Source: Candidatus Levyibacteriota bacterium
GTDB lineage: Bacteria; Patescibacteriota; Microgenomatia; Levybacterales; UBA12049
Direction of reading: 5' to 3'
Length of the DNA stretch: 64,000 nucleotides
Assembly: GCA_963790825.1 (NCBI GenBank)
Contig: CAWBPM010000002.1
Location: 618,815-682,814, forward strand
Shown here piece by piece: positions 2,617 to 53,440 of the stretch. Numbering within the stretch: position 1 is the stretch's first letter; every line of letters begins with the position of its first letter. The translations under genes were made by a program, and so were the position numbers. The notes beneath the pieces were generated by a model that did not search any database, was not told the origin of the DNA, and saw only the letters and a list, made by a program, of their open reading frames with translations.

Positions 2617-4305
2617 CTATTTTTGTTTTAATACAATTGACACTCCGATCGGTGTTCCTGTCAGTTCTTTACATATTTTTTGTAATACTTCCATAGTTTG
2701 CGTGTGACTGAGACGTTCTTTATGAAACTGATATGAGGTTTCAATAATAAGATCTTTTCTATCAAAGCTTTTTATGCTGCAGCCTCTCAGCACTCCGGCG
2801 GTAGTATGATTATGACCCTTCATCGAGTTAATAATGCATTTCCAAAATAGAGTAAGCCATTCCGGTGTAATTTCCCCTTCAGCAGAGTAGTTAAGTAGAT
2901 TGACTGACGCGATATCTACGATGCCGTCTCCATCCGTTTTTTGCTCGATTTCTCCGTAAAGGGCTTTGATTTTGGCAATATTGTTTACCTTTTTACGAAG
3001 TATCGCAACTGATACGTCATTTTCTCCGGAAGTTTTAGTAGCAGTTTTTTCATCTTTTTCCGAAGCAATCACGCTAATCTTTTTTTCATCTTTTTTTTCG
3101 CCTTCTATTTTTTCAAAAGCTTTACACCAGTCAATCAGCGCAATCTCAAGTGGCAATTGCAAAATCGGGGAATTTTTCATATCATTAGAAGCGAAACTGA
3201 AAAGACGAATGAGCTGTTTTATTTCCTCAATACCAAGCTTTATTTCATCTTTTTCAGTTTTTTCATCGGTTGTCACACCAACTTTTTGCAAGATTAGTAG
3301 ATGAAGTTCCTCCACCAATTCACCGGTAAAATATTTCATATCCATACCCTGGCTCACAAGTGTCTCAATCAGCTTTAGTCCTTCTGTTAACTTCCGCTTT
3401 TCAAGTATCCGAAGCATTGCGCTTAAATGAGATGCTATACCTATGATTTGATAGGTTTTATCTATAAATTCTTTTGTAATTTTCTTTCCGTTAGAAAGCG
3501 CCGTAACCTCTTCAAGGAGCTTTGTCGCATCACGAAATCCACCATCTCCCAGGTGAGCAATTTCCAATAATGCTTCTTCATCGATCTCGATTTTTTCCCC
3601 TTTTATAATCCGTTTCAAGGAACGGACGAGTTCCTGATCCGTCGCTTTCGTGAAAACAATCGTGAAACAACGGGAAAGAATCGTTGGAGGAACCTTATGC
3701 TGCTCTGTGGTGCAAAGAATAAACATTGCATGCTGGGGCGGCTCCTCAAGCGTTTTCAGAAGTGCGTTAAATGCTTCACTTGTTAACATGTGCACCTCGT
3801 CAATAATATATATCTTCTTTTTTGCCGAGATTGGAGATAAACGAATTTTATCTTTTAAGTCGCGTATTTCGTCAATTCCGCGGTTAGAAGCTGCGTCAAT
3901 TTCCAAAACGTCCAGGTTCGTGCCATTGGTGATCGAGACACATTGTATACACTTATTGCATGGTTCGATTTGATAAATTTCTTTATCTTCTAATTTTTGA
4001 TTTTTTATCTGTGTTTTTGACTTTTGATCCTTAACTTTTGACCTCCCTACACAATTAACAACCTTGGCAATGATTCGCGCTGAAGAAGTTTTCCCGAGTC
4101 CCTTGGGACCGGCAAAAAGAAACGCGTGGGGGACGGAATCCCACTCAGTGGGATGAGTCCGCCTGTCTTTCGACCCTGAGTTCAAGACCGAAGGGCCTGG
4201 CAGGGGTGGGGGATTTTTGGCTAGGACTGAAAAAAGCGTCTCCCGAACGTGCTTATTATCCAGTTCCTCAATTGTTTGGCCTCGATATTTTCTGTAGAAA
4301 ACCAT
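2617..4305 (-). CDS. dnaX: DNA polymerase III subunit tau/gamma
   Basis: P-loop GPKGLGKTS, Zn-module Cys cluster (CNKCIQC), DEVHML Walker B, LKTLEEPP, sensor SRC, and a C-terminal tau-specific region. Carries the conserved -1 frameshift heptamer (see separate feature). Confidence 0.9.
   Translation of the reverse strand: MVFYRKYRGQTIEELDNKHVRETLFSVLAKNPPPLPGPSVLNSGSKDRRTHPTEWDSVPHAFLFAGPKGLGKTSSARIIAKVVNCVGRSKVKDQKSKTQIKNQKLEDKEIYQIEPCNKCIQCVSITNGTNLDVLEIDAASNRGIDEIRDLKDKIRLSPISAKKKIYIIDEVHMLTSEAFNALLKTLEEPPQHAMFILCTTEQHKVPPTILSRCFTIVFTKATDQELVRSLKRIIKGEKIEIDEEALLEIAHLGDGGFRDATKLLEEVTALSNGKKITKEFIDKTYQIIGIASHLSAMLRILEKRKLTEGLKLIETLVSQGMDMKYFTGELVEELHLLILQKVGVTTDEKTEKDEIKLGIEEIKQLIRLFSFASNDMKNSPILQLPLEIALIDWCKAFEKIEGEKKDEKKISVIASEKDEKTATKTSGENDVSVAILRKKVNNIAKIKALYGEIEQKTDGDGIVDIASVNLLNYSAEGEITPEWLTLFWKCIINSMKGHNHTTAGVLRGCSIKSFDRKDLIIETSYQFHKERLSHTQTMEVLQKICKELTGTPIGVSIVLKQK
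3079..3099 (-). other. dnaX programmed -1 ribosomal frameshift signal: tandem slippery heptamers A_AAA_AAA and A_AAA_AAG
   Basis: The coding strand reads GGC GAA AAA AAA GAT GAA AAA AAG ATT AGC (codons 402-411). A -1 shift at the first site gives AGA TGA. A -1 shift at the second gives GAU UAG. Both terminate within 2 codons, which would produce a gamma-like product of about 405-410 aa, as in E. coli dnaX (A AAA AAG). Confidence 0.6.
4128..4215 (-). other. GC-rich, hairpin-forming in-frame insertion in the dnaX N-terminus (encodes PPPLPGPSVLNSGSKDRRTHPTEWDSVP)
   Basis: About 88 nt of markedly higher GC than the flanking sequence, inserted between the conserved LAKN and HAFLFAGPKGLGKTS segments. 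Contains a perfect ATCCCAC-TCA-GTGGGAT hairpin and G-runs. There is no counterpart in canonical DnaX. Confidence 0.5.
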
Positions 4306-4315
4306 AAAAAAAATT

Positions 4316-4376
4316 AGAATCTAGAATTATAAATTCTAAACTAATTATGAATTCTGAATTTTGAATTCTAGATTCT
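4316..4376. repeat. TRAATTY heptamer / inverted-repeat element (AGAATCTAGAATT ... AATTCTAGATTCT, 13-bp perfect IR with 35-nt spacer containing TGAATTC TGAATTT TGAATTC)
   Basis: Lies between the ybeY stop and the dnaX start. Related elements are at 5903-5999, 7556-7700, 30183-30300 and 50790-50850. Confidence 0.7.
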
Positions 4377-4761
4377 ACTCGTGGTGCATGCCCAGTAAAT
4401 GTAATAATCCATGTTTTACCAGCTCATCAATTTTATCGTCAACCAACACTTCTTCCGCCGCAGCCTCCCTGATTATTTGCGGATATGCCAAAACAATATC
4501 CCCTAACCTGGTAATACCCTCCGGAAGTATTGCTTCTCCGCCTTCGTTAATTGGAAATGATAAAACGTTTGTTGTTTTATCTTTATCTCGGTATTTTTTG
4601 TTCAAAGATCGCATTTTCCTATCTCCCACAATTGCCACGGATACTTCAGTGGGACTACTAATATTATTTTCTCCAATTATTTCCTGAACAGCTTGTTTTA
4701 TCCGTTTTCTATTTACGCTATACCGACTTTCAACAAAGATAAGAACACGAATACTGCTCAT
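4375..4761 (-). CDS. ybeY: rRNA maturation endoribonuclease YbeY
   Basis: 128 aa with a C-terminal HGLLHLLGMHHE metal-binding motif (H..H.....H) typical of YbeY/UPF0054. Confidence 0.85.
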   Translation of the reverse strand: MSSIRVLIFVESRYSVNRKRIKQAVQEIIGENNISSPTEVSVAIVGDRKMRSLNKKYRDKDKTTNVLSFPINEGGEAILPEGITRLGDIVLAYPQIIREAAAEEVLVDDKIDELVKHGLLHLLGMHHE

Positions 4762-5902: not shown

Positions 5903-5999
5903 AAAAGAATTTAAAAATTATAATTCAAAATTCAGAATTAAGTATATAATTTTCAAATTCTAAATTCAATTCTGAAATATAAATTCTTAATTCTAAATT
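5903..5999. repeat. TRAATTY heptamer / inverted-repeat element (AAATTCAGAATT ... AATTCTGAAAT arms)
   Basis: An AT-rich intergenic sequence built of AATTCAA/AATTCAG/AATTCTA units with about 10-bp inverted arms and a 38-nt spacer. Confidence 0.6.
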
Positions 6000-9314: not shown

Positions 9315-9794
9315 ATGAACACTAAGGAAAACCCAATGAGGAATAACTTTCAAATTAATACTCGCGGTAATATTTCTTCAATTGAATGGAGATTACCAAG
9401 TTTATTAAATTATACCTCATTCAAAACAATTCTTGCAACAATTATCGAGCAAAATTCTTTAAGTCTCATCGGAATGAGAGTGCATAAAGATATCTATAAT
9501 AACTATGATGAAGCCGGAAAACCTAAAATAAAAAGTCTATACTTGGATTTCGACACCGAAGACATCAGAAAAACACTCGCGGAAAAAGATACTACTGATC
9601 AAGCAATTTACTTACAAATTCACGCTTGGAATATCGTCGGTGCAGAAAAAATAGTTTTCTATAAAACAATTGGCGACAATATCCAAGCTATTCCTCAAGA
9701 AGAACCGAAAATTCACTTAACAGAAACTTCACCCGATGCTTTTAAGCAATATATTACTGCTTCCGAGGAGCTAAAAGGATTGGATATGCTTTAA
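9315..9794 (+). CDS. hypothetical protein (159 aa)
   Basis: ORF track. The start is preceded by the tandem 10-mer ATTTATTAAT x2. Confidence 0.45.
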   Translation: MNTKENPMRNNFQINTRGNISSIEWRLPSLLNYTSFKTILATIIEQNSLSLIGMRVHKDIYNNYDEAGKPKIKSLYLDFDTEDIRKTLAEKDTTDQAIYLQIHAWNIVGAEKIVFYKTIGDNIQAIPQEEPKIHLTETSPDAFKQYITASEELKGLDML

Positions 9795-10732
9795 CGCTTT
9801 GTAACTTTGTGTCCACCAAATTCGCGGCGCAAAGCTGCCACCATCTTCGCGGCAAAGGAATTTTGAATGTTTTCGTCTGTTTGTGATTTTCTTCGAAATG
9901 AAAGTGATTCCTCGATAACCGGTACCGGTACTTTTTCTTTTTTTGCAGCTGTTATTGTCCACTCTGCTTCCCCTGTCGCATCTACAATGCCGACAATATC
10001 CGATAACTCCCGATCTTTTTCTAAAGCGTCTTTTGCCCGGTCGATCAGAAAACTTGAGATAATGGTTCCCTTTTGCCAAACTTTAGTAACTTGCAAAAGA
10101 TTGAAATTATACTTCGATTTTTCTAAAACTCCGAAACCCTCGCCGATTGATTGCATCATGCCGTACTCTATTCCGTTATGCACCATTTTTACGAAATGTC
10201 CTGCTCCGCCTGTCCCAAAATACTGATGTCTCCCATTTGGTTTGGCCAAACTATCTAGAATAGGTTTGATATACTTATATGCACTCCTCGTTCCGCCGAC
10301 CATCATCGGGTACCCGTTCTTTTCGGCCATGATTCCCCCCGAAACACCGATTCCTAAATAGGATATATTTTGTGATCTAAAATCAACAAATCGCCTTTCT
10401 GTATCTAGATAATTTGAATTACCTCCATCAATCACAATATCGTCTTTTTTCGCGTATTTTTTAATTTCCTGAAGAGCTGTCTCTGTCGGCTGTCCGGATG
10501 GAAGCATCAACCAAACAATACGAGGTTTTCCTAGATTTTGCATGAGTTCTTCAATCGTTTGGGTAGTTATCAAATTTTTTAATGCTTTTGGTTGCATTTT
10601 TTTTATCTCCCTTGCAAATTCTTCAGTAACAGTATATGTCCTATTCCAGACAACGACAGAAAAGCCCTTTCTAAGAAGTTTCTCCGCTATTCTCGCTCCC
10701 ATTTTCCCAAGTCCTAAAATTGCAATTTGCAT
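9791..10732 (-). CDS. gnd: 6-phosphogluconate dehydrogenase, decarboxylating (short YqeC/Gnd-like form)
   Basis: N-terminal Rossmann fold IAILGLGKMGARIAEKL, GIGVSGG, and the 6PGDH C-terminal domain. Immediately downstream of zwf with a 4-nt gap. Confidence 0.75.
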   Translation of the reverse strand: MQIAILGLGKMGARIAEKLLRKGFSVVVWNRTYTVTEEFAREIKKMQPKALKNLITTQTIEELMQNLGKPRIVWLMLPSGQPTETALQEIKKYAKKDDIVIDGGNSNYLDTERRFVDFRSQNISYLGIGVSGGIMAEKNGYPMMVGGTRSAYKYIKPILDSLAKPNGRHQYFGTGGAGHFVKMVHNGIEYGMMQSIGEGFGVLEKSKYNFNLLQVTKVWQKGTIISSFLIDRAKDALEKDRELSDIVGIVDATGEAEWTITAAKKEKVPVPVIEESLSFRRKSQTDENIQNSFAAKMVAALRREFGGHKVTKR

Positions 10733-10736
10733 AAAT

Positions 10737-12212
10737 TTACAGCCACTTTCTCCCGTCTTTTTCGATTAAATCGTTTGCCTGCTTAGGACCAGTCGAATTA
10801 TCTTTATACGAATACAGCGGAACTTTTGACCTTTCCCACCCCTTAAGAATTCCTGTAATAAATGTCCAGGAACTGACGAGCTCATCCGACCGATTAAACA
10901 GCATTTGATCCCCTGAGAAAATATCGAGGAGAACTTTCTCATACGCATCCAACAAATGATGTTCCTCATGTTCTTTATAGGCAAATTTCATATCAATAGT
11001 TTCCAGAGAAAGACGGGAACCAGGCGTTTTCGCAATGATGCGAATTTGAATTCCTTCATCCGGTTGGATGCGAAAGGTAATCACGTTCCCGACTTCCGGA
11101 CAACCGTATTCTTTAAATAAAATGTGACAGGTCTGTCTGAAAACGACTGAAATCTCCATCATTTCTTTTGGCATTTTTTTGCCAGCCCTCAAATAAAACG
11201 GAATGTATGCAAAGCGCGGATTATCTAAAAATAACTTCATTGCTACGTACGTCTCTGTTTTTGAACCAGGGAGTACATCCTTCTCATTTCTATAGCTCTC
11301 GTATTGAGCCCGTACAACTGTATTCTCTACCTCCTGTGGGTTAACGCAAACTAATGATTTGATCGCATCCGACCTGACATCTCTGATTGCTTCTTTCTCA
11401 AAACTCTTCGGCTGCTCCATCGCAATAGCCGACAGTAACTGCATCAAATGATTTTGCCCTACATCCCGAAGGATTCCAACCCCGTCAAAAAATTTACCCC
11501 TTTTGCCGACTCCTTCTCTTTCCATCCAGGTAATTTGTATGTGATCAATATGTTCTTTGTTCCACATGGGCTCGAAAATTCCATTTGCGAAACGAAACGC
11601 CAAGAGATTCTGCACTGTTTCTTTGCCTAGATAGTGGTCAACCCGGAAAATTTGTTTTTCACTAAAAATCTCCGCTAATTTTCCATCCAGCATCTGTGCT
11701 GTTTCTACGTCTTTTCCAAACGGTTTCTCAATAACAATCTTGATCCCCTGCCCGCTAGTGCCAGCCAGGGGTTGTGGCAGGCGGGATTTATTAGATCCCA
11801 ATTTCGTACTATTTAAATACCGCAGGATATCCGAATAGTGATCCGGCGGCGTCGCGAGATAAAAAATCCGCGCAATATATGCGCCAATTTCTTTATCAAA
11901 CCCATTTAATTTCCGAGCGAGCTCATTATAACCTGCGACCTCGTTAAATACTCCTTGTTGATAATAAATATTTTTACTAAATTTTGCCCAAGCCGCTTTA
12001 TCCTCCGGTTTCATTTCCTCAGCCAAAAGTTCCCGAAATGCAACGTCTTTAAACGAACGCCTGGCAAATCCGACAATATAAAACTTTTCCCCCAATTGCT
12101 TTTTTTTATAGAGAGAGAAAAATGCAGGGAACAATTTATGAAGGGATAAGTCCCCAGTCGCGCCGAAAATTATCATAACAAAGGGGTTCTGCGGAAGCGG
12201 AGAATTTTCCAT
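10737..12212 (-). CDS. zwf: glucose-6-phosphate 1-dehydrogenase
   Basis: IIFGATGDLSLHKLFPAFF NADP-binding motif, the RVDHYLGKE active-site motif, and a 491-aa length. Confidence 0.9.
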   Translation of the reverse strand: MENSPLPQNPFVMIIFGATGDLSLHKLFPAFFSLYKKKQLGEKFYIVGFARRSFKDVAFRELLAEEMKPEDKAAWAKFSKNIYYQQGVFNEVAGYNELARKLNGFDKEIGAYIARIFYLATPPDHYSDILRYLNSTKLGSNKSRLPQPLAGTSGQGIKIVIEKPFGKDVETAQMLDGKLAEIFSEKQIFRVDHYLGKETVQNLLAFRFANGIFEPMWNKEHIDHIQITWMEREGVGKRGKFFDGVGILRDVGQNHLMQLLSAIAMEQPKSFEKEAIRDVRSDAIKSLVCVNPQEVENTVVRAQYESYRNEKDVLPGSKTETYVAMKLFLDNPRFAYIPFYLRAGKKMPKEMMEISVVFRQTCHILFKEYGCPEVGNVITFRIQPDEGIQIRIIAKTPGSRLSLETIDMKFAYKEHEEHHLLDAYEKVLLDIFSGDQMLFNRSDELVSSWTFITGILKGWERSKVPLYSYKDNSTGPKQANDLIEKDGRKWL

Positions 12213-19771: not shown

Positions 19772-20368
19772 CTACACTTGGCAATAGTCGCTGATTTGCT
19801 GGTAGAAAACGAATAGATACCAGATACTAAGTAGAAGAATGAGGAAAAGCAAAAAAAGCCGGCGCTTTTTTTGCTGGCGATCTAGAATATGGTACCAGCC
19901 GAAAAGTGAAAAAGCTTGGTACGAAATCCCCAACATAATACTTCGCAAGATAAACGGCAGATGCGGAGAAAAAAATATTTCAACCAGTGGAAGAAGCAAC
20001 AAAACTGTTAAAAGCGTAAGTGAATATTTCGTTTTTTTATTTCTGACAACATACCAGAATCCAAAAAGAAGCCCTGCTACGCCGGTCAGAGAAATAAATT
20101 GTATCAAGAACCGGACGTCAAAAAATTGCAGATAATCCTGCAGAAATTGGGCGGTAAAGAAAATCGGTTTGTTGTGGAAAATATGCGTGAGGAGAATTCC
20201 TGCTCCTTGATCATTATTCACTTCACCTACAAGTTGTATTAGTCCTTGATGATAATTCAAATGAAAAAGCTCACTGAAATTTCGGCACTTCCCCCACTGC
20301 GTCAGTGCCAAGACTTCATTAAGCCAGATAAGAAACAAATAAAAAATCATACTTATTGTAATTCCCAA
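19772..20368 (-). CDS. hypothetical polytopic membrane protein (198 aa)
   Basis: Overlaps the stop of the upstream glycosyltransferase by 16 nt, so it is probably co-transcribed. Confidence 0.45.
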   Translation of the reverse strand: MGITISMIFYLFLIWLNEVLALTQWGKCRNFSELFHLNYHQGLIQLVGEVNNDQGAGILLTHIFHNKPIFFTAQFLQDYLQFFDVRFLIQFISLTGVAGLLFGFWYVVRNKKTKYSLTLLTVLLLLPLVEIFFSPHLPFILRSIMLGISYQAFSLFGWYHILDRQQKKRRLFLLFLILLLSIWYLFVFYQQISDYCQV

Positions 20369-21888
20369 AACTGGGCGAAAATATCTTTATTCAAATTCGG
20401 CAAATACACGGTAGCAACCTTTTTACGTGAGGTATTTGATCCATAAAACGGACGGATGAACAGAACTTTCTGACCTTGCCAAGACGCCGGAGTCTGCCAG
20501 GAAGCAGCAGCAGCAATCGGTTTCAGATTACTGTCATAAAACTGAAAATAATACACTGCATCTGACAGTTGACTGTCGATAACAATGTGCGGGTATTGTT
20601 TTGCAAGTTTTGCAGTCTTAAAAACTACATCCCTGTATCCCCCGCCCCAATCCAACACATTAATTCTCGGATATTGGACGTAATAAAATTCCAAGTAACT
20701 GAGGAATTGGAAGGTGGCGATAATTATGGTGAGCAGCAAAAGATATATACGATATTTTCCTGCTTTTTGTAATGTATAAAAAATGCCAAGCGTAATAATA
20801 ATCACCATCGGAATAACCATGATAAGTACGCGTAACGTCTGCGGACTGGGCCTGGCAATTGCTGCCGGAAACGGCGACATTAAAAGTAAAAAAAGAAGAA
20901 TATACTTTACGACTCCCCTTTTCATTTGAAGCAGAAGATAAAGCCCAACGAGAAGAAATGGGAATTGCCAATACGGTAAAAGTCCAAAGCCGGAAATTTG
21001 GTGTCTGCCGATTCCGTCTCCTGCGTTAAACAAAAACGACAAAGAGAAAAATGACAGGTAATCTTTTAGGTAAACCATCGGATAGACAGTAGCTTGACCA
21101 AGTAAACTATTTTGCTGGAACTCTGAAAATGCCGATGTCGCTCCGAAGCGGCTCGAACCCTGCGGAGAAAGAGTAAAGAGAATATTCGGCATTACAAAAA
21201 TGAAGAAGAGTATCCCGCAGGTAATTATCGTTCTGTGAAGATTAGGAAGTAATTTATAAAATACGCCAATTATTATCAGAACAGTGACCGGCGTGCTAAT
21301 CCGATAGGTATGATAAGTGTATACGGTGAGAGCAAAAAGAAGAAAACTGCCGAGCAAGAATAAAAATCGTTTCTTCCTGCAAAAAAGTAACAAAAGATAC
21401 GAAGCGGTGAGATAGAGAAACGCGCCGAGTGTTACTTCAAATCCCGCCCGGGAAAATTGCAAATGCCAGGGAGAAATTGCAAGTAAAAACGCGGCGAGCA
21501 AACCTGCAGCACGAGGCGAAATCTGCATCTGTTTTTCATTTTTCAAAAGTAAGGCAAGTTCATAGACAAATAAATATAATACCAGGATTGTCAGTGTGCC
21601 CGAAAGTGCTGAGGTAAAGCGAACGGCGAATTCCGTTTTTCCAAAAACGCTCATTGCTGCTGCGGTCGAGTAAATGTACAGGGGCATTTTATAGTCGCCG
21701 AATGATTTAAATGCCAGAGGATAGCGCACGCCGAACTCATCTGCTCCGGTTTTAAGAATATCATAGGCATTGTTTCCGATTGACACCTCGTCGATATACA
21801 GCCCGGGCGGAACACTGGAAATTTTATAAAATCGCAGAAAGCCTCCGAGGAGAATGATGAGAAAAAGTAAAATAATCGTTTTTTTCAT
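20353..21888 (-). CDS. GT39/GT83-like (PMT/ArnT family) polytopic glycosyltransferase
   Basis: N-terminal TM helix followed by YIDEVSIGNNAYDIL.TGADEFG..YPLAFKSFGDYKMPLY (the DE-containing first periplasmic loop of PMT/ArnT enzymes). More than 10 TM helices, 511 aa. Confidence 0.6.
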   Translation of the reverse strand: MKKTIILLFLIILLGGFLRFYKISSVPPGLYIDEVSIGNNAYDILKTGADEFGVRYPLAFKSFGDYKMPLYIYSTAAAMSVFGKTEFAVRFTSALSGTLTILVLYLFVYELALLLKNEKQMQISPRAAGLLAAFLLAISPWHLQFSRAGFEVTLGAFLYLTASYLLLLFCRKKRFLFLLGSFLLFALTVYTYHTYRISTPVTVLIIIGVFYKLLPNLHRTIITCGILFFIFVMPNILFTLSPQGSSRFGATSAFSEFQQNSLLGQATVYPMVYLKDYLSFFSLSFLFNAGDGIGRHQISGFGLLPYWQFPFLLVGLYLLLQMKRGVVKYILLFLLLMSPFPAAIARPSPQTLRVLIMVIPMVIIITLGIFYTLQKAGKYRIYLLLLTIIIATFQFLSYLEFYYVQYPRINVLDWGGGYRDVVFKTAKLAKQYPHIVIDSQLSDAVYYFQFYDSNLKPIAAAASWQTPASWQGQKVLFIRPFYGSNTSRKKVATVYLPNLNKDIFAQFWELQ

Positions 21889-21933
21889 GCAAACACGACT
21901 ATTATATCAGGAGTGAAAGGAAAATGAGCGTAG

Positions 21934-22698
21934 TTATAACTCAATCCCTTGGTCGGTAATGAGGATTGTTTTACAGGCAATATCCGGCCTGGTAAAAAAA
22001 CGAGCCGGAATGTCTTCTTCTTTACCGGAATTAAAGGTTAATTTTAATGCTTGTTTTTTATCATCTCCGAATACTAAAATAAGGAGTACATCAATCATCG
22101 ACAGTCCCAAAAAAGTCATGCTGATCCGCTCTTGATACGTTGCATCAGGATACAGGTACGCACTCACCTGGTCTTGCTCCGACAATTCTGAATTCTGAAT
22201 TCTAAACTCTGAATTTCTGGCCAAAAGGCCTGCCGTATGTCCGTCTTTTCCGATTCCTAAAATAGCCAGACTATTTTGAAATGTTGCATGCATTCCTCGT
22301 ACGACCTGATCATAGTCTTCTGCCGTTTTTTTAAGGTCGGTTTCGGCAGTTATAATCGGAGAGAAACGAATATCCCGCATGTGGAAATAATTAAGCAGCC
22401 CCGAGTCTCTGATCATCGTTTCATTACTGTTCTCGTGAAATTTAGGGCTGAACCGTTCGTCAACTAATCCGACTGCTCCGGGTATCAATTTTTCCTCTTT
22501 GGCCAAGGTTTTGTAAAGCTCTTTTGGAGTATTTCCGCCGGAGAGAAACAAGGTTGTTTTTCTATCAACCAAAAGATAGAGGATTTCTTTACCCAGATCT
22601 AAGCCTTCTTCGCTACCATAAACCGGACAAACTAAAATTCCTGTATTTATAAACGACAAGATATTTTTCGTTTTCAGAAGTTGTATAACTTCTTTCAT
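21934..22698 (-). CDS. pgl: 6-phosphogluconolactonase
   Basis: LSGGNTPKELY and the LGIGKDGHTAGL signature of the 6PGL/NagB family. Carries an unusual in-frame insert NSEFRIQNSELS encoded by TRAATTY heptamer repeats. Confidence 0.75.
   Translation of the reverse strand: MKEVIQLLKTKNILSFINTGILVCPVYGSEEGLDLGKEILYLLVDRKTTLFLSGGNTPKELYKTLAKEEKLIPGAVGLVDERFSPKFHENSNETMIRDSGLLNYFHMRDIRFSPIITAETDLKKTAEDYDQVVRGMHATFQNSLAILGIGKDGHTAGLLARNSEFRIQNSELSEQDQVSAYLYPDATYQERISMTFLGLSMIDVLLILVFGDDKKQALKLTFNSGKEEDIPARFFTRPDIACKTILITDQGIEL
22184..22218. repeat. Five tandem imperfect heptamers (AATTCTG AATTCTG AATTCTA AACTCTG AATTTCT) embedded in-frame in pgl
   Basis: Same TRAATTY motif as the intergenic heptamer elements. 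Translated on the minus strand as part of pgl. Confidence 0.6.
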
Positions 22699-23882
22699 GG
22701 CTTTGCAAATTGTTGCGCGATATCTTTATAGGTGATCAGAATAATAAGCAGCAGAAGAATCGCCATACCGACCTGGTGAATGTAGCCTTCTATTTTCGGA
22801 TTAACTTTCCGACCGGTCACTCCTTCCAGAAGAATAAAAAACAGTCTTCCCCCGTCAAGTGCGGGAATCGGCAGTATGTTGAAAAATGCCAAAGAGATTG
22901 ACAAAATACCTGACAGATTGAGAATCTGAAGAATCCGCTCTTTCATGTTGGGAATTTGCACTATCGTACCGACCAGCGAATAGATGCCGACCGGTCCTGA
23001 AACACCCTGGCTGATTGGCGCTGCGTTTCTTTCTTTGATAGAGACACTGAGGAGCTGTCCCAAAACGTCGAAATTATAGAGCATAAGATTTATCGGATGG
23101 ACAATTCCGGACAATGCTTTTTCTACCGGTGTTTTATAGCTTAATTCGATGCTTTCTGCCGGGAAAAATGCCACGCCTAATGCCCCCTGGTTCTTGGGAG
23201 GATTTACCCTGGGCGTTACACTGCCCGAGTAGGTTTGATTAGTCTCCAGATTTTGCCAGGCAATAGTTATTTTTTTTCCCTTATCTGCCTGTACAATTTT
23301 TACAAATTCGTCAGGACTGGTAACATTTATGCTATTTAGCGAAGTAATTCTTGAATTGACTTGGATACCCGCCATCTCTGCCGGTGAATTTTTCTCTACC
23401 TCACTTACTATAATATCCGATCTTTTCTGCTGCTCAACCAGGAAGAACTTGTGATCGCCGAGAAGCGGCAGCTCCGTATGAAAACTAGAGATAAACATAA
23501 ACGCATAGTAAATCAGAATTGCCAGAATCGCGTTCATAATAACGCCGGCTATGACGACTGCCGCACGTTGACCAACCGACCGAGTGTAAAAAGCCCGCTT
23601 TTCGTCTTCCTTGTTTTTTGTTTCTGTTTTCTCTTCCGCAGGTCCGATTCTTCCTGCCCCTGCTTCATCTTCGCCGTAAAGTTTTACGAATCCGCCAATC
23701 GGCAACCAGTTAATCGAATATTCCGTCTCTCCCCTTTTAATGCTGAATGCTTTGGGTGGAAAGCCGAATCCGAATTCCTCAACTTTTATTCCCAATTTTT
23801 TCGCAACAAAAAAATGTCCCGCTTCGTGGATGAGAACGAGAACCGATAGAATGATGAGAAACGTAATTGCGGTAAGTAGCAT
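22695..23882 (-). CDS. rseP: RIP metalloprotease RseP (site-2 protease)
   Basis: HEAGHF zinc motif in the first TM helix, a central PDZ domain, and a C-terminal LDGG motif (ALDGGRLFF). Confidence 0.85.
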   Translation of the reverse strand: MLLTAITFLIILSVLVLIHEAGHFFVAKKLGIKVEEFGFGFPPKAFSIKRGETEYSINWLPIGGFVKLYGEDEAGAGRIGPAEEKTETKNKEDEKRAFYTRSVGQRAAVVIAGVIMNAILAILIYYAFMFISSFHTELPLLGDHKFFLVEQQKRSDIIVSEVEKNSPAEMAGIQVNSRITSLNSINVTSPDEFVKIVQADKGKKITIAWQNLETNQTYSGSVTPRVNPPKNQGALGVAFFPAESIELSYKTPVEKALSGIVHPINLMLYNFDVLGQLLSVSIKERNAAPISQGVSGPVGIYSLVGTIVQIPNMKERILQILNLSGILSISLAFFNILPIPALDGGRLFFILLEGVTGRKVNPKIEGYIHQVGMAILLLLIILITYKDIAQQFAKP

Positions 23883-25652: not shown

Positions 25653-25717
25653 GTCATTCCCGAACCAATCGGATTTGAACTTTGAAATTATTTAGGAGTT
25701 AGTTCGTCAGCTGACGG
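25653..25717. repeat. Intergenic repeat module D (GTCATTCCCGAACCAATC) plus 12-bp palindrome CGTCAGCTGACG
   Basis: 16/18 identical to 30082-30099; palindrome at 25706-25717. Confidence 0.45.
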
Positions 25718-25799
25718 ATTAGAATTTAGAATTTGCCTAAACTTATAGGTCTTTTTAATCTCTTGTGTATCGCTGCTGAATTTACTACAATACAAGAGT

Positions 25800-26789
25800 A
25801 TGGTTTCCTGTGAAAGTCGGGTAGAAAAAGTAAAAGATCCTTACAAAATGAAGTCTCAAGAATTACAGGCTTTGGCTATGGATGAATCCGGAAAGTCAGA
25901 TGACAACCAGAAAAAATCCAGACTTCTTCGCGTTTCTAGCTCATGGCATAGAATTACCCAGACGCTAACCGAGTCCCGTACCAAACGGCGGATTGGCGGC
26001 GGTGTTGTTTTAGCATTAAATGTTTTAGCTTTTAAACAGCCGGAATTAGCCAGCGCTATAGGTATATTTTTAGGAGGTGCTGCCGGCGCAACAATAGCCG
26101 CTGATACGGATTTTACTGAGAAAATCAACGAGCGGCAGGTCGAGAAACAGGCAGAAAAACAAATTACAGCAGTTGAACCAGATAGACCGGTTCCCCACTC
26201 CATGCTGGTGGAAATATTTGCCTTGCATCCGGATGTTATTCCAGCTTCGGAAATTAGAGACTGGAGTATTAATTCGCGTCGTGCTGAGCGTAAATATCGT
26301 AAAGACATAAGACTTACCGCTTCGGAATCAGTCTTTGATCATGCCGCACATATGACTGGAAAATTAAGGGCAAATATTGGTCAAGCGAAACAAACAGTTT
26401 TAGTTGCTCAAGTGGAGGCACAAAAACACAGATCCGATCCTGAGTTTATGAAAGCAATAGCCTTTCGTAAAATTGGCGGCGTATCGGCAGGTGTAGTTCT
26501 GGGTGGATTGGGTGGGTTCGTTTCGGTAGGAATGTTAGGACCGATTGGCGGAGCTATTGCCGGCACTGCCGATGATGCCTATTTGGTAGCAAGACTTTGC
26601 GGCGAAGATATCCGGCATTTAGTACATAAATTTATTAAGTCCGGATCGGATGATCTCCCTTCCTCTCCTATCTACATTTCACCAATTAGTCAGGAAGTAG
26701 CAATAAATTCTGTTTTTAGTGCTGCCCGCGACATTGTGATTCCAATTCGTTCTGAAACATGTCCGAGACAAACAGTTAGAAGATTATAA
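25800..26789 (+). CDS. hypothetical protein with two glycine-zipper-like segments
   Basis: GGGVVLALNVL...IGIFLGGAAGATIAA and GGVSAGVVLGGLGGFVSVGMLGPIGGAIAGTA resemble glycine-zipper (GxxxG repeat) membrane segments. Confidence 0.45.
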   Translation: MVSCESRVEKVKDPYKMKSQELQALAMDESGKSDDNQKKSRLLRVSSSWHRITQTLTESRTKRRIGGGVVLALNVLAFKQPELASAIGIFLGGAAGATIAADTDFTEKINERQVEKQAEKQITAVEPDRPVPHSMLVEIFALHPDVIPASEIRDWSINSRRAERKYRKDIRLTASESVFDHAAHMTGKLRANIGQAKQTVLVAQVEAQKHRSDPEFMKAIAFRKIGGVSAGVVLGGLGGFVSVGMLGPIGGAIAGTADDAYLVARLCGEDIRHLVHKFIKSGSDDLPSSPIYISPISQEVAINSVFSAARDIVIPIRSETCPRQTVRRL

Positions 26790-30034: not shown

Positions 30035-30300
30035 TAATATAAATAAATTCTTCTATTGAGTTTCCTTTGTATTTTTTCGCAGTCATTCCCGCTCCAATCA
30101 AACATTCTTCCAGGCTTAATTCGCATTCCAAACGACGATTATTTTATAACATCAACGAAATTTAACGTCTTTCATAATAACTTTCAGATCTTTACTTGTG
30201 ATTTTGAATTTTAAATTTTAAATTTATTCGATAGGTCTCAAGAAAAAATGCAGAGGAAACGAAAATAATTAGGTTAATTTTTAATTTTGAATTTTAAATT
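30029..30300. repeat. Mosaic intergenic repeat, copy B (module 1 at 30046-30082, D-like module at 30082-30099, module 2 at 30232-30274, TRAATTY heptamers at 30197-30225 and 30276-30300)
   Basis: Module 2 is 36/36 identical to 24070-24105. Module 1 is about 90% identical to 23951-23989. Confidence 0.7.
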
Positions 30301-50789: not shown

Positions 50790-50850
50790 TACGCATGCTT
50801 TCTAATTTAATTTTGAATTATGAATTTTAAATTTTGAATTTTTTATACTT
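50790..50850. repeat. TRAATTY heptamer tandem element (TAATTT TGAATTA TGAATTT TAAATTT TGAATTT)
   Basis: Lies between the thyA start and the stop of the dcd-like gene. Confidence 0.6.
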
Positions 50851-51509: not shown

Positions 51510-52517
51510 TCAGGATCTCTTTTCGCTTTCATCTGCTAATTTTACCAATTCATTATATTGCTCACCTATTTGAGTAATCGCAAAAGGACTATCTTTTCTG
51601 CTTTTCAATTGATAAATAGTGACAGGTAACGTCGTAATGAGTTCTGCAAGTTTTACTTGAGATGTTAACGTATCTTTTTTATTATCAGTATTAACTTCTG
51701 TAACGATCGGTATCCCCCCGACTTCGTCTACCTGTGAAACCCCGGCTTGCAAATCAGCCCTGTTATACGCATGGACTGCCATATCGACATTTTGTATCTG
51801 AATGCTCTGGTTAAGAAGCGCTGTTATATACTGCCCAAATTGCTGGTAATGAATTGACGGTCCTGAAATGGCAGCCAGAATTGGCGTAACCGGACGGCTG
51901 AGATGAAGAGATTTTAAAACAGCCAGAGTCTCTTTCGTAAAATAAGCAAACGTATCATAATTTTGATCCCACCAAAAGTTCGACTCATTCGGTTCATTCC
52001 CTATTTCAAGCCATTCCACGCTTTTATGCTCAGTAATCGCCAGGAGATCCAATTTTATGAATTCTTTAATTTGGGTTTCATTTTGCTTAAGTTCCGAAAC
52101 TGTCTTGGGCATTGAGTGAATAAAACGAAGGACCGCACCGTTATCGACAAATGTGTAAAAAGGAAGCTCTCCGGGATCATAACAGAAAATTACTTTTTTA
52201 TTTTCTTTATCTGCCTCGGTCAGTTCTTCTTCAACCTGAGGATTATTTTCAAAAGTACCATCTACACTGACCAGAGAAGTAGGACTGCCGATTCGCAAGG
52301 TATTAATATGCAGTTTATCTGTCCCTTCTATCATTGACTGTTCAGAAACACTAACACCTATTCGTGAGTCATAGCTTGTTGTAGTTGTTTGAGAAGCAGA
52401 AACAGTTTCGGACGGATGAGGAAAACCTGTAGAATAGAAGGTAGAAGACAAAAGAGCAACAGATCCTAATATTTTTCTTATTTGGTTCCTAGGCTTTAGT
52501 TTTTCAACCTGCGCCAT
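51510..52517 (-). CDS. secreted glycoside-hydrolase-like protein (clan GH-A-like, NEP motif)
   Basis: N-terminal signal-like segment ILGSVALLSSTFYSTG. WLEIGNEPN is a typical catalytic acid/base motif of GH5/GH-A TIM-barrel enzymes. Confidence 0.45.
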   Translation of the reverse strand: MAQVEKLKPRNQIRKILGSVALLSSTFYSTGFPHPSETVSASQTTTTSYDSRIGVSVSEQSMIEGTDKLHINTLRIGSPTSLVSVDGTFENNPQVEEELTEADKENKKVIFCYDPGELPFYTFVDNGAVLRFIHSMPKTVSELKQNETQIKEFIKLDLLAITEHKSVEWLEIGNEPNESNFWWDQNYDTFAYFTKETLAVLKSLHLSRPVTPILAAISGPSIHYQQFGQYITALLNQSIQIQNVDMAVHAYNRADLQAGVSQVDEVGGIPIVTEVNTDNKKDTLTSQVKLAELITTLPVTIYQLKSRKDSPFAITQIGEQYNELVKLADESEKRS

Positions 52518-52550: not shown

Positions 52551-52636
52551 ATAACCAATAACCAATAACCAATAACCAATAACCAATAACCAATAACCAA
52601 TAACCAATAACCAATAACCAATAACCAATAACCAAT
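52551..52636. repeat. Heptanucleotide microsatellite (ATAACCA)x12 in divergent promoter region
   Basis: Twelve perfect tandem copies at 52551-52634 plus a partial AT, lying between the start of the minus-strand GH-like gene (52517) and the start of the plus-strand Cys-rich protein gene (52679). A TTGACA lies immediately downstream at 52643-52648. Confidence 0.95.
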
Positions 52637-52678: not shown

Positions 52679-53440
52679 ATGAGGCTCTTCGCTAAATTGG
52701 TAATCTCGTTTTTTGTTTTTACGTTATTTATTTTTAATCCTCCTAAGATGTTCGCAGTTACTGCTCCCCCTATTTGTAGCGCAGTGACCGCGTTTAATCT
52801 TACCTGTTCTCTTTCGGGTACAGCTACGTTTACAGCTTCTTGGGATTTATCTGCATATGGAGTACCAGCAGCTAGTAATATTTGCAATATTTATGTTTAT
52901 GCTGGCAGCAATGCCCATACTATTAGTCATACGTGTGCTGGCAGCAATGTTAGCATTACGGTTCCTGCTGATAATTCTCCGACTGTTTCAATCTACGTAA
53001 GCAATGGAATTATTGGTGATGTATGTTATAATGCTCCTCAAGGCACCATAAATAATGCTTGTGCTCCTCCCACTGCTACACCAATCCCTGCTCCTACTAC
53101 TCCCCCTGTTAACATTTATGCAGGCTGCGAAGGCAGCGCGGCAGACAACGCGGCTGACGTCTGGAAGCTAGATTGTATTCCTGTTGTCGCAGGACAACTG
53201 GTTAATTATGCTCTCATTTTCCTAGGAATCGTCGCGGTTATATTTATTATCTATGCGGGCTACAAGTTTATTACTTCCCGCGGTGATCCGAAGCAGGTTG
53301 AAGGAGCCAGAAAAATTATTACTTACGTTCTTATCGGCATCACGATTATTTTACTTTCATTCTCTATTATAGCCTTCATTGCATATATTACGGGCGTAAC
53401 ATGTATCGATGGCTTTAGTCTACATGCATGTAACACGTAA
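52679..53440 (+). CDS. secreted Cys-rich protein with TrbC/VirB2-pilin-like C-terminal hydrophobic hairpin
   Basis: Signal peptide, then a 150-aa Cys/Thr/Ala-rich region (10 Cys) with a PTATPIPAPTTPP linker. C-terminal LVNYALIFLGIVAVIFIIYAGYKFITSRG...IITYVLIGITIILL has two TM segments with a short basic loop, as in TrbC/VirB2 pilins. Confidence 0.45.
   Translation: MRLFAKLVISFFVFTLFIFNPPKMFAVTAPPICSAVTAFNLTCSLSGTATFTASWDLSAYGVPAASNICNIYVYAGSNAHTISHTCAGSNVSITVPADNSPTVSIYVSNGIIGDVCYNAPQGTINNACAPPTATPIPAPTTPPVNIYAGCEGSAADNAADVWKLDCIPVVAGQLVNYALIFLGIVAVIFIIYAGYKFITSRGDPKQVEGARKIITYVLIGITIILLSFSIIAFIAYITGVTCIDGFSLHACNT

Follow-up and report, generated by a model that had tools for sequence, protein, structure and literature searches.

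The window, by which we mean the whole 64,000-nucleotide stretch of DNA analysed here, carries on its minus strand an open reading frame for a predicted 6-phosphogluconolactonase (Pgl), inside which lies an in-frame array of heptanucleotide repeats (Table 1). The reading frame scored 102.7 bits (E=3.4e-29) with Pfam PF01182, for which the cut-off is 27, and its sequence matches to Pgl proteins in the PDB reached E values down to 7.5e-10. The AF2 model had a mean pLDDT of 93 and a pTM of 0.91, and a Foldseek search of the PDB returned Pgl structures at ranks 1–18 (E=4e-14 to 5e-12), with NagB structures only after them. Residues G148, G150, D152, G153 and H154 of the GIGKDGHTAG motif were invariant in alignments of 26 and of 120 orthologs, and the gene of the window is intact and of full length relative to these. 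In related loci (L082, L083, L089, L090 and L092) zwf lies directly downstream of pgl, which supports the Pgl role; in the window the pathway partners gnd and zwf are found ~10 kb from pgl. Profile, fold, GxDGHT motif and the association with zwf and gnd all agree with the assignment of the product as a predicted 6-phosphogluconolactonase.

On the plus strand, positions 22184–22218 read AATTCTG AATTCTG AATTCTA AACTCTG AATTTCT, the fifth heptamer (AATTTCT) being weak and partly flank. TRF reported the repeat at 22184–22215 with a period of 7, 4.6 copies, 84% matches and a score of 50, and the repeat is perfect over at most 20 nt (2.9 units). Read on the minus strand, the codons AGA AAT TCA GAG TTT AGA ATT CAG AAT TCA GAA TTG are translated as RNSEFRIQNSEL, that is, residues 161–172 (R161–L172) of Pgl, immediately C-terminal to ILGIGKDGHTAGLLA. 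A preliminary description of this DNA, made from the letters alone, had reported in-frame heptamers inside pgl on the minus strand, and this was borne out, with about 4.6 units by TRF.

Table 1. Positions of the genes, motif and repeat arrays of the window that are discussed in the text.
Feature	Position	Strand	Basis or remark
Degenerate period-7 array in dnaX, encoding SKVKDQKSKTQIKNQK	3993..4028	-	TRF: 5.3 copies, 66% matches
Array of AATTATG/AATTCTG/AATTTTG, ybeY-dnaX spacer	4343..4369	.	Same AATT-core family as the pgl array
Two arrays, AAAATTC and AAATTCT types, between DHH-like gene and HIT gene	5914..5999	.	
gnd (9791-10732) and zwf (10737-12212)	9791..12212	-	Pfam G6PD_N/G6PD_C; NAD_binding_2/6PGD
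pgl ORF, predicted 6-phosphogluconolactonase, Pgl/DevB family, 254 aa	21934..22698	-	Pfam PF01182, PDB matches, AF2/Foldseek
In-frame heptanucleotide array in pgl	22183..22218	-	Sense strand AGAAATT CAGAGTT TAGAATT CAGAATT CAGAATT G
GIGKDGHTAG motif, residues 148-157 of Pgl	22228..22257	-	Invariant columns; just upstream of the array
Short TTAGAAT x2.3 array, divergent spacer	25719..25734	.	
Two AATTTTR arrays (30201-30225 and 30274-30300), convergent spacer	30201..30300	.	Just downstream of the SHMT stop
AATTTTG x4.9 array	50809..50842	.	Abuts the stop of a dCTP-deaminase-like gene

We analysed how common such repeats are in the window. The 14-mer AATTCTGAATTCTG, allowing up to two mismatches, occurs 13 times as compared with 1.19 expected, and none of 100 shuffles reached 13. 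When arrays with periods of 4–14 were counted at a threshold of at least four units and at least 85% matches, period 7 was clearly enriched (four arrays, versus none in shuffles), with one array each at periods 4 and 5. At that threshold the pgl array was the sole period-7 array within coding sequence; the degenerate array in dnaX is a second, decayed coding array of the window. The earlier statement that the pgl repeats are identical in type to the intergenic elements also held, as AATT-core heptamers make up all five remaining array entries of Table 1. Four of five arrays of the window are non-coding, and the stop codons at 4375, 5993, 30304 and 50843 are abutted or contained by arrays. The TAG stop of ybeY (4375–4377) falls within a degenerate GATTCTA unit that prolongs the array of the ybeY-dnaX spacer, and the TAG stop of the DHH-like gene (5993–5995) lies inside a heptamer unit. 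The units are heterogeneous (AATTCTG, AATTTTG, AAATTCT, TAAATCC, ATAACCA and others; ATAACCA forms a tract of 12 units at 52551–52636), and do not amount to a single genome-wide heptamer.

In the related loci, as in the window, several arrays had period 7, arrays of periods 6 and 8 were nearly absent, and shuffles gave about zero. The ybeY-dnaX spacer of L082 also holds an array, the rseP gene of L083 contains ATTAAAG x5 in a loop of RseP, and pgl of L086 has a second array site with 3 units and a net gain of 7 aa. The pgl array is thus one member of a family of A/T-rich arrays with a period of 7 that extends across the lineage; its members are mostly intergenic and often adjoin or overlap stop codons. 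We found no description of the abundance of heptamer arrays in Patescibacterial genomes in the literature that we searched, and it is apparently undescribed.

The preliminary description had placed the repeat in a loop that follows the active-site signature, at a point where canonical Pgl proteins were said to have a short turn, and expected an alignment of orthologs to confirm an insertion. The position of the loop was correct. However, in an alignment of 120 orthologs (44–57% identical, nearly all ~253 aa long) the segment from DGHT to MT is 44 aa long in the window and 45 aa long in most of the 119 other orthologs, and solved Pgl structures also have the corresponding segment, 2–9 aa shorter than that of the window, and not a short turn. 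The similar length in the orthologs and the presence of the segment in solved structures indicate that the repeat fills a pre-existing variable loop and adds none; the insertion hypothesis was, therefore, rejected. The more general proposal that heptamers insert or expand within genes agrees with the in-gene arrays seen elsewhere in the lineage, but the pgl array is not an example of such insertion. It had also been proposed that chance similarity would be recognised by orthologs having a loop of similar length and unrelated DNA. The length was indeed similar, but in many orthologs heptamer DNA of a related kind encodes the loop, and chance is thereby excluded as the cause of the similarity.

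The only residues of the AF2 model with a pLDDT below 50 are 163–166 and 168–171. As these fall in the array, it is predicted to encode a disordered surface loop. The loop also appears to be insertion-tolerant, judging from unrelated inserts found at the same place in other orthologs (S[AS]SGQ peptides, and a GC-rich insert of 29 nt in L008).

Ten sequenced orthologs, ~44–57% identical, carry a heptamer array at the same site (L082, L083, L084, L086, L088, L089, L090, L091, L004 and L005). In all 11 arrays (the window and these ten) the array starts 25–33 nt after the first base of the DGH codon (29–33 nt in 10 of the 11), and in all 11 it is in frame with 3.6–5.1 units. Four of the 11 were retrieved by DNA-level scans, for which an intact reading frame was no prerequisite. 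A scan of metagenome DNA for an array together with DGHT codons gave four loci, of which two were real pgl genes with in-frame arrays (L086 and L088) and two were chance matches. The consensus of the unit differs among orthologs (AATTCAG, AATTCAA, AATTCCA, CAAATCT, CATGAAT). The array of L083 is AAATTCA x4.7, perfect over 33 nt, and that of L082 is ATTCAGA x4.0, perfect over 28 nt; L084 has three GAATTCA units followed by AAATTCA, L090 has AGTTCAA alternating with AATTCAA, L004 has CAAATCT x4.6, and L005 has CATGAAT x5. The reverse complement of the intergenic AATTTTG unit at 50809–50842, CAAAATT, is the unit that encodes NSKFKIQNSK in L083 Pgl.

A near-identical loop peptide occurs in P0003 (SEFRIQNSE) and P0055 (NSEFRIQNSK), and each of the other loop peptides of the orthologs (NSKFKIQNSK, SSKFKVQNSK, KSQISNLKSQ, IMNHESRIKNS) is what its own homogeneous heptamer, different from the rest, encodes. 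In 19 of 120 orthologs, at least 8 of 10 loop residues agreed with the translated product of a perfect heptamer repeat, versus 0 of 591 background segments; further instances were also seen. The same position and ~4–5 units across orthologs show that the array is old. In a neighbour-joining tree of the 120 orthologs, built with the loop columns removed, array-type loops did not separate from NRxDF-type loops; the tree is crude and poorly resolved, hence the array-type loops may, but need not, have a single origin. The arrays of L086 and L088 contain a register shift, which shows that rare length events have occurred and were compensated.

It is conceivable that selection keeps an NSEFRIQNSE-like peptide, or that the resemblance arose by chance, with the periodicity of the DNA being a by-product of A/T-rich codon bias; loops rich in Lys, Ser, Asn and Gln are common in A/T-rich genomes. 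We resampled synonymous codons from the codon usage of each locus and compared the number of lag-7 matches. In every one of the 11 arrays, matches were more numerous than expected (P from <5e-5 to 0.06), and two control orthologs with an NRxDFxNPWF loop gave P=0.73 and 0.44. In all 11 arrays the synonymous codons that are used (Ser TCA, Phe TTC, and CAG or CAA for Gln, matching the adjacent units) fitted the repeat. Across the orthologs, the periodicity is thus kept in the DNA to a degree that the peptides do not demand. The array of the window was the weakest of the 11, with 21 of 29 lag-7 matches versus 15.9 expected from its peptide and codon usage (P=0.06). It is, therefore, only slightly more periodic than its peptide would require, and may already evolve simply as peptide. 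The loop peptides, however, vary by lineage (NSEFRIQ, NSKFKIQ, KSQISNL, MNHESRI), each corresponding exactly to the reading of its own homogeneous heptamer, and a specific peptide is unlikely to be needed because the segment is predicted to be disordered. The resampling, the 19 of 120 versus 0 of 591 peptide matches and the identity of units within arrays (see below) largely refute a peptide-only or chance origin, and we regard it as scarcely credible.

We compared the units with each other and with their counterparts in other orthologs. The identity of units within arrays was 0.864, as compared with 0.573 at orthologous positions; the null obtained by shuffling columns was 0.606, and 0 of 2000 shuffles reached the observed within-array identity. 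The higher identity within arrays than at orthologous positions is the mark of concerted evolution: the units have been homogenised. Two strains that we compared over 3762 nt of rseP-pgl-zwf differ by only two substitutions; both are in the array, the length of which is unchanged, and one of them turns unit 4 identical to unit 1. As both differences fall inside it, the array is a hot spot of substitution without change of length. These sequence patterns are also the source from which we infer the homogenising mechanism proposed below.

The preliminary description had proposed that slippage by one unit would frameshift pgl, making the array a phase switch of the oxidative pentose phosphate pathway. 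By this explanation, slipped-strand mispairing that adds or removes one 7-nt unit would turn the lactonase step reversibly ON or OFF. The first part is correct: the unit length is not divisible by 3, and we computed that one- or two-unit changes truncate Pgl at 175 or 186 aa. Loss of Pgl would likely be tolerable, because the lactone also hydrolyses spontaneously. There is a precedent in neuO, where a coding (AAGACTC)n tract leaves the gene ON only if the number of units is divisible by 3 (PMC13001214). Near-perfect arrays are kept in some orthologs (33 nt in L083, 28 nt in L082), the concerted evolution of units suggests that misalignment does occur, and the register shifts of L086 and L088 imply earlier length events.

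Other observations argue against the switch itself. The window has only 2.9 perfect units, versus 8–53 in documented heptanucleotide switches, the unit numbers of which are highly variable (PMC13001214, PMC2651432). All 11 arrays are in frame, including the four from DNA-level scans, and an independent Logan assembly has the array of the window identical base for base. A search with residues 1–172 as the query gave 64 matches, among which no truncated allele of ~175–190 aa with full coverage was seen, although the power of this search was low. Comparison of related genomes, which had been suggested as a check, revealed no OFF variants in unit number, and the two strains compared over 3762 nt differ in the array by substitutions and not in length. 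Besides, pgl is a housekeeping enzyme gene, neither a surface nor a host-interaction gene. Set against what is known of SSR contingency loci, the array does have a non-triplet unit within a reading frame; it does not have a long tract of identical units, and neither polymorphism of unit number nor OFF alleles were seen among the 11 arrays and the strain pair, a sample of limited power. We, therefore, consider a phase switch quite improbable. A programmed ribosomal frameshift site was rejected, as AATTCAG does not fit X_XXY_YYZ and the zero-frame product is of full length and homologous throughout.

It is also possible that the array has a dual use as a DNA or RNA signal kept by selection, such as a site for a factor, or a signal for transcription or translation of the zwf operon. 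The position and size of the pgl array are conserved across orthologs, its synonymous sites are constrained, and the intergenic array of the ybeY-dnaX spacer is conserved in position as well (window and L082). Heptamer families elsewhere have been proposed as regulatory sites and favour ~4 units near the ends of reading frames (PMC4679880, PMC4692102). The window, where zwf does not follow pgl, has the most decayed of the AATTCAR arrays. Selection for a DNA or RNA element with a set size could likewise account for a near-constant number of units whose sequences differ.

The sequence of the array itself is, however, not conserved, with 57% identity at orthologous positions and units differing at 2 of 7 bases between lineages; the periodicity alone is kept. 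A consensus scan of positions 21800–22800 for sigma-70-like promoters and intrinsic terminators gave no candidate at the array and no more matches than in shuffles, and the RNA fold of the 86 nt around the array was no better than those of shuffles (z=-0.82). In addition, the mean distance from the pgl unit to other arrays was 1.89 within its own genome and 2.11 between genomes, which is no clear difference. We thus find a cis-acting role of the pgl array rather unlikely. A broader form of this proposal, to which we give a little less credence still, is that the period-7 A/T-rich arrays are a functional cis-element system of the whole lineage, the pgl array being dual-coding, for the loop and for a DNA or RNA signal or a low-rate ON/OFF switch. 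If true, it would explain why, over deep divergence, ~4–5 units and the position are held in pgl, rseP and ybeY-dnaX while the units co-evolve.

In our opinion, the array is probably a length-locked, in-frame heptanucleotide microsatellite that encodes a disordered loop after the GxDGHT motif of Patescibacterial Pgl. A 7-nt unit is read in all three frames, so that three units specify a peptide with a period of 7 aa; (CAGAATT)3, for example, gives QNSEFRI. Transient misalignment or template switching between neighbouring units would copy substitutions from unit to unit, leading to concerted evolution, while selection on the reading frame and on the length of the loop would purge changes in the number of units. 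Changes of one or two units would be removed because they truncate Pgl at 175–186 aa, and a change of three units would delete the greater part of the loop or make it almost twice as long. In the window, the array would have partly decayed (2.9 perfect units plus imperfect ones) within a gene that is presumably constitutively intact. The contribution of the repeat would then be the sequence of the loop, with no part in regulation.

Bacterial in-gene microsatellites with non-triplet units are usually read as contingency switches. The pgl array suggests that repeat-driven mutation (misalignment) and selection on the frame are separable, and that slippage-prone DNA can turn into a permanent disordered loop of a core enzyme. 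An SSR in an ORF should, thus, not be equated with phase variation unless copy-number data exist. The abundance of heptamers also matters for annotation, since stop codons and loops are supplied by repeats, and it is relevant to the cause of the preference for period 7 in several bacterial lineages that are unrelated to each other.

A close known parallel in coding DNA is neuO of the CUS-3 prophage of E. coli K1, with a coding (AAGACTC)n tract that has 3–53 units and is variable within cultures; 66% of genomes have neuO in the OFF state (PMC13001214). As in neuO, a 7-nt tandem repeat lies inside a reading frame, its translation in three frames gives a 7-aa repeat, and the product is of full length only with a number of units that keeps the frame. 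The tract of neuO, however, lies 5′-terminally in a gene for capsule modification, whereas the pgl array is in the middle of a gene for a housekeeping enzyme, and unlike neuO it has ~4.6 units (2.9 perfect), a similar number across deep orthologs, and no OFF allele seen. Heptanucleotide SSRs of H. influenzae are found in the promoters of hmw1A and hmw2A, and (AATTTTG)14 lies inside an hmw1a reading frame (PMC2651432). Location in a promoter or a reading frame, and even the AATTTTG unit, are shared with the arrays described here; the H. influenzae tracts, in contrast to the pgl array, have 8–38 perfect units, vary among strains and are linked to surface adhesins. The ATAACCA tract of the window resembles them; the pgl array does not.

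Cyanobacterial STRR heptamers are one genome-wide family of heptamer direct repeats. Other such families are TAACTGA in Beggiatoaceae and cyanobacteria (PMC4679880) and GGGAATC and GGGGAYT in Xanthomonas and Nostoc (PMC4692102). As in the TAACTGA and GGGAATC families, period 7 is over-represented in the window and the arrays are dispersed, with few units (~4 being typical), mostly intergenic and near the ends of reading frames, often within 50 bp of stop codons or overlapping them, with occasional copies inside reading frames in a stop-free orientation. The arrays described here differ in their host lineage, Patescibacteria, and in their units, which are A/T-rich with an AATT core and are heterogeneous instead of one fixed heptamer. 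Furthermore, where the known families have copies inside reading frames, these mostly encode the ends of proteins or belong to hypothetical proteins, whereas the pgl array lies midway in a conserved enzyme, keeps its place among orthologs and shows concerted evolution.

In-ORF tandem repeats of Borg proteins create intrinsically disordered regions (PMC9879509). The pgl array resembles these, as a nucleotide tandem repeat that keeps the frame, does not disrupt the reading frame and encodes a low-complexity segment predicted to be disordered. The units of Borg repeats, however, always have lengths divisible by three, and they are perfect and of recent origin, whereas the pgl unit is 7 nt long, and its array is old and constrained in length. 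Dispersed heptamer families are already known; what is newly seen here is probably a variant of them, a non-triplet microsatellite in the coding sequence of a core enzyme that is locked in length and whose units evolve in concert.

Period-7 arrays also lie within coding sequences other than the post-GxDGHT loop of pgl. In the relative L083 (JGI 3300072699), five copies of ATTAAAG within rseP, the gene upstream of pgl, specify a loop in the M50 protease RseP, IKIKDERLKIKDE. Weaker period-7 sequence is found at the matching rseP site both in L082 (GCA_038254115.1) and in the window; the rseP loop is a second coding array that recurs at one position. A second site within pgl itself is occupied in another relative, L086, where five copies of AAACTTA after VDERY encode TNLKLKTENLKLG. 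The net difference from other orthologs at this site is +7 amino acids, exactly three units, and the site exemplifies a fixed in-frame gain of three units. In the window, the degenerate array in dnaX encodes SKVKDQKSKTQIKNQK, directly ahead of the Cys-rich stretch PCNKCIQC of DnaX; this peptide is similar to array-derived Pgl loops of other genomes, for example SQKSKVKSQK.

At the Pgl loop that holds the array, several orthologs (P0008, P0021, P0061 and P0082) carry unrelated, S[AS]SGQ-type inserts of 8-9 amino acids (THSASSGQE, IHSASSGQA, SSLSSGQA and PSAGSGQG). In the pgl locus of L008, the heptamer array is split by a 29-nt GC-rich insert, CCCGGCCTCGCCAAGCGAAGCGGGGCGGGC. These inserts seem to represent a small repeat element, rich in GC, landing in that loop.

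Arrays also meet the ends of genes in the window. Both ybeY and a DHH-like gene end in a TAG codon (4375-4377 and 5993-5995, respectively) that falls inside a heptamer unit (TAGAATC in the first, TAGAATT in the second), and the arrays therefore provide these stops. Two further arrays adjoin the stops of the SHMT and dCTP-deaminase-like genes. An AATT-core array is present in the ybeY-dnaX spacer of both the window and L082, two genomes with 57% identity between their Pgl proteins; one intergenic array has therefore been kept in position.

Coordinates of arrays and neighbouring features
Feature	Sequence	Position	Strand	Remarks
dnaX degenerate array	window	3993-4028	-	TRF, 5.3 copies, 66% matches
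ybeY-dnaX spacer array	window	4343-4369
ybeY-dnaX spacer array	L082	20599-20633
ybeY stop array region	window	4343-4377
DHH-like stop array region	window	5955-5999
zwf-gnd	window	9791-12212
PMT_2-type glycosyltransferase	window	20353-21888		511 aa
rseP period-7 sequence	window	~23600-23650
rseP period-7 sequence	L082	~9063
rseP array	L083	9059-9099
Second pgl site	L086	1177-1215
Split pgl array	L008	~1240-1290
Palindrome region	window	25684-25720
SHMT stop array	window	30274-30300
dCTP-deaminase-like stop array	window	50809-50842
ORF	window	51510-52517	-	335 aa, no Pfam match
(ATAACCA) x12.3	window	52551-52636		100% perfect, TRF score 172
ORF	window	52679-53440	+	253 aa, T4SS_pilin (PF18895, E=5e-7)

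In the orthologs examined, pgl is followed directly or almost directly by zwf. In the window this place is taken by the glycosyltransferase gene, and zwf-gnd lies ~10 kb from pgl; the oxidative pentose phosphate cluster is locally rearranged.

Immediately upstream of a TTAGAAT array we noted a perfect 12-nt palindrome, CGTCAGCTGACG, which shares with it the divergent spacer preceding ORF 25800-26789. The palindrome may act as an operator or fold into a terminator-like hairpin.

The ATAACCA tract occupies the 161-nt divergent spacer between the two tabulated ORFs. It is a far stronger candidate for phase variation than the pgl array, because its length and location fit known heptanucleotide promoter switches: in both respects it is like those of hmw1A and hmw2A, the surface adhesin genes of H. 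influenzae.
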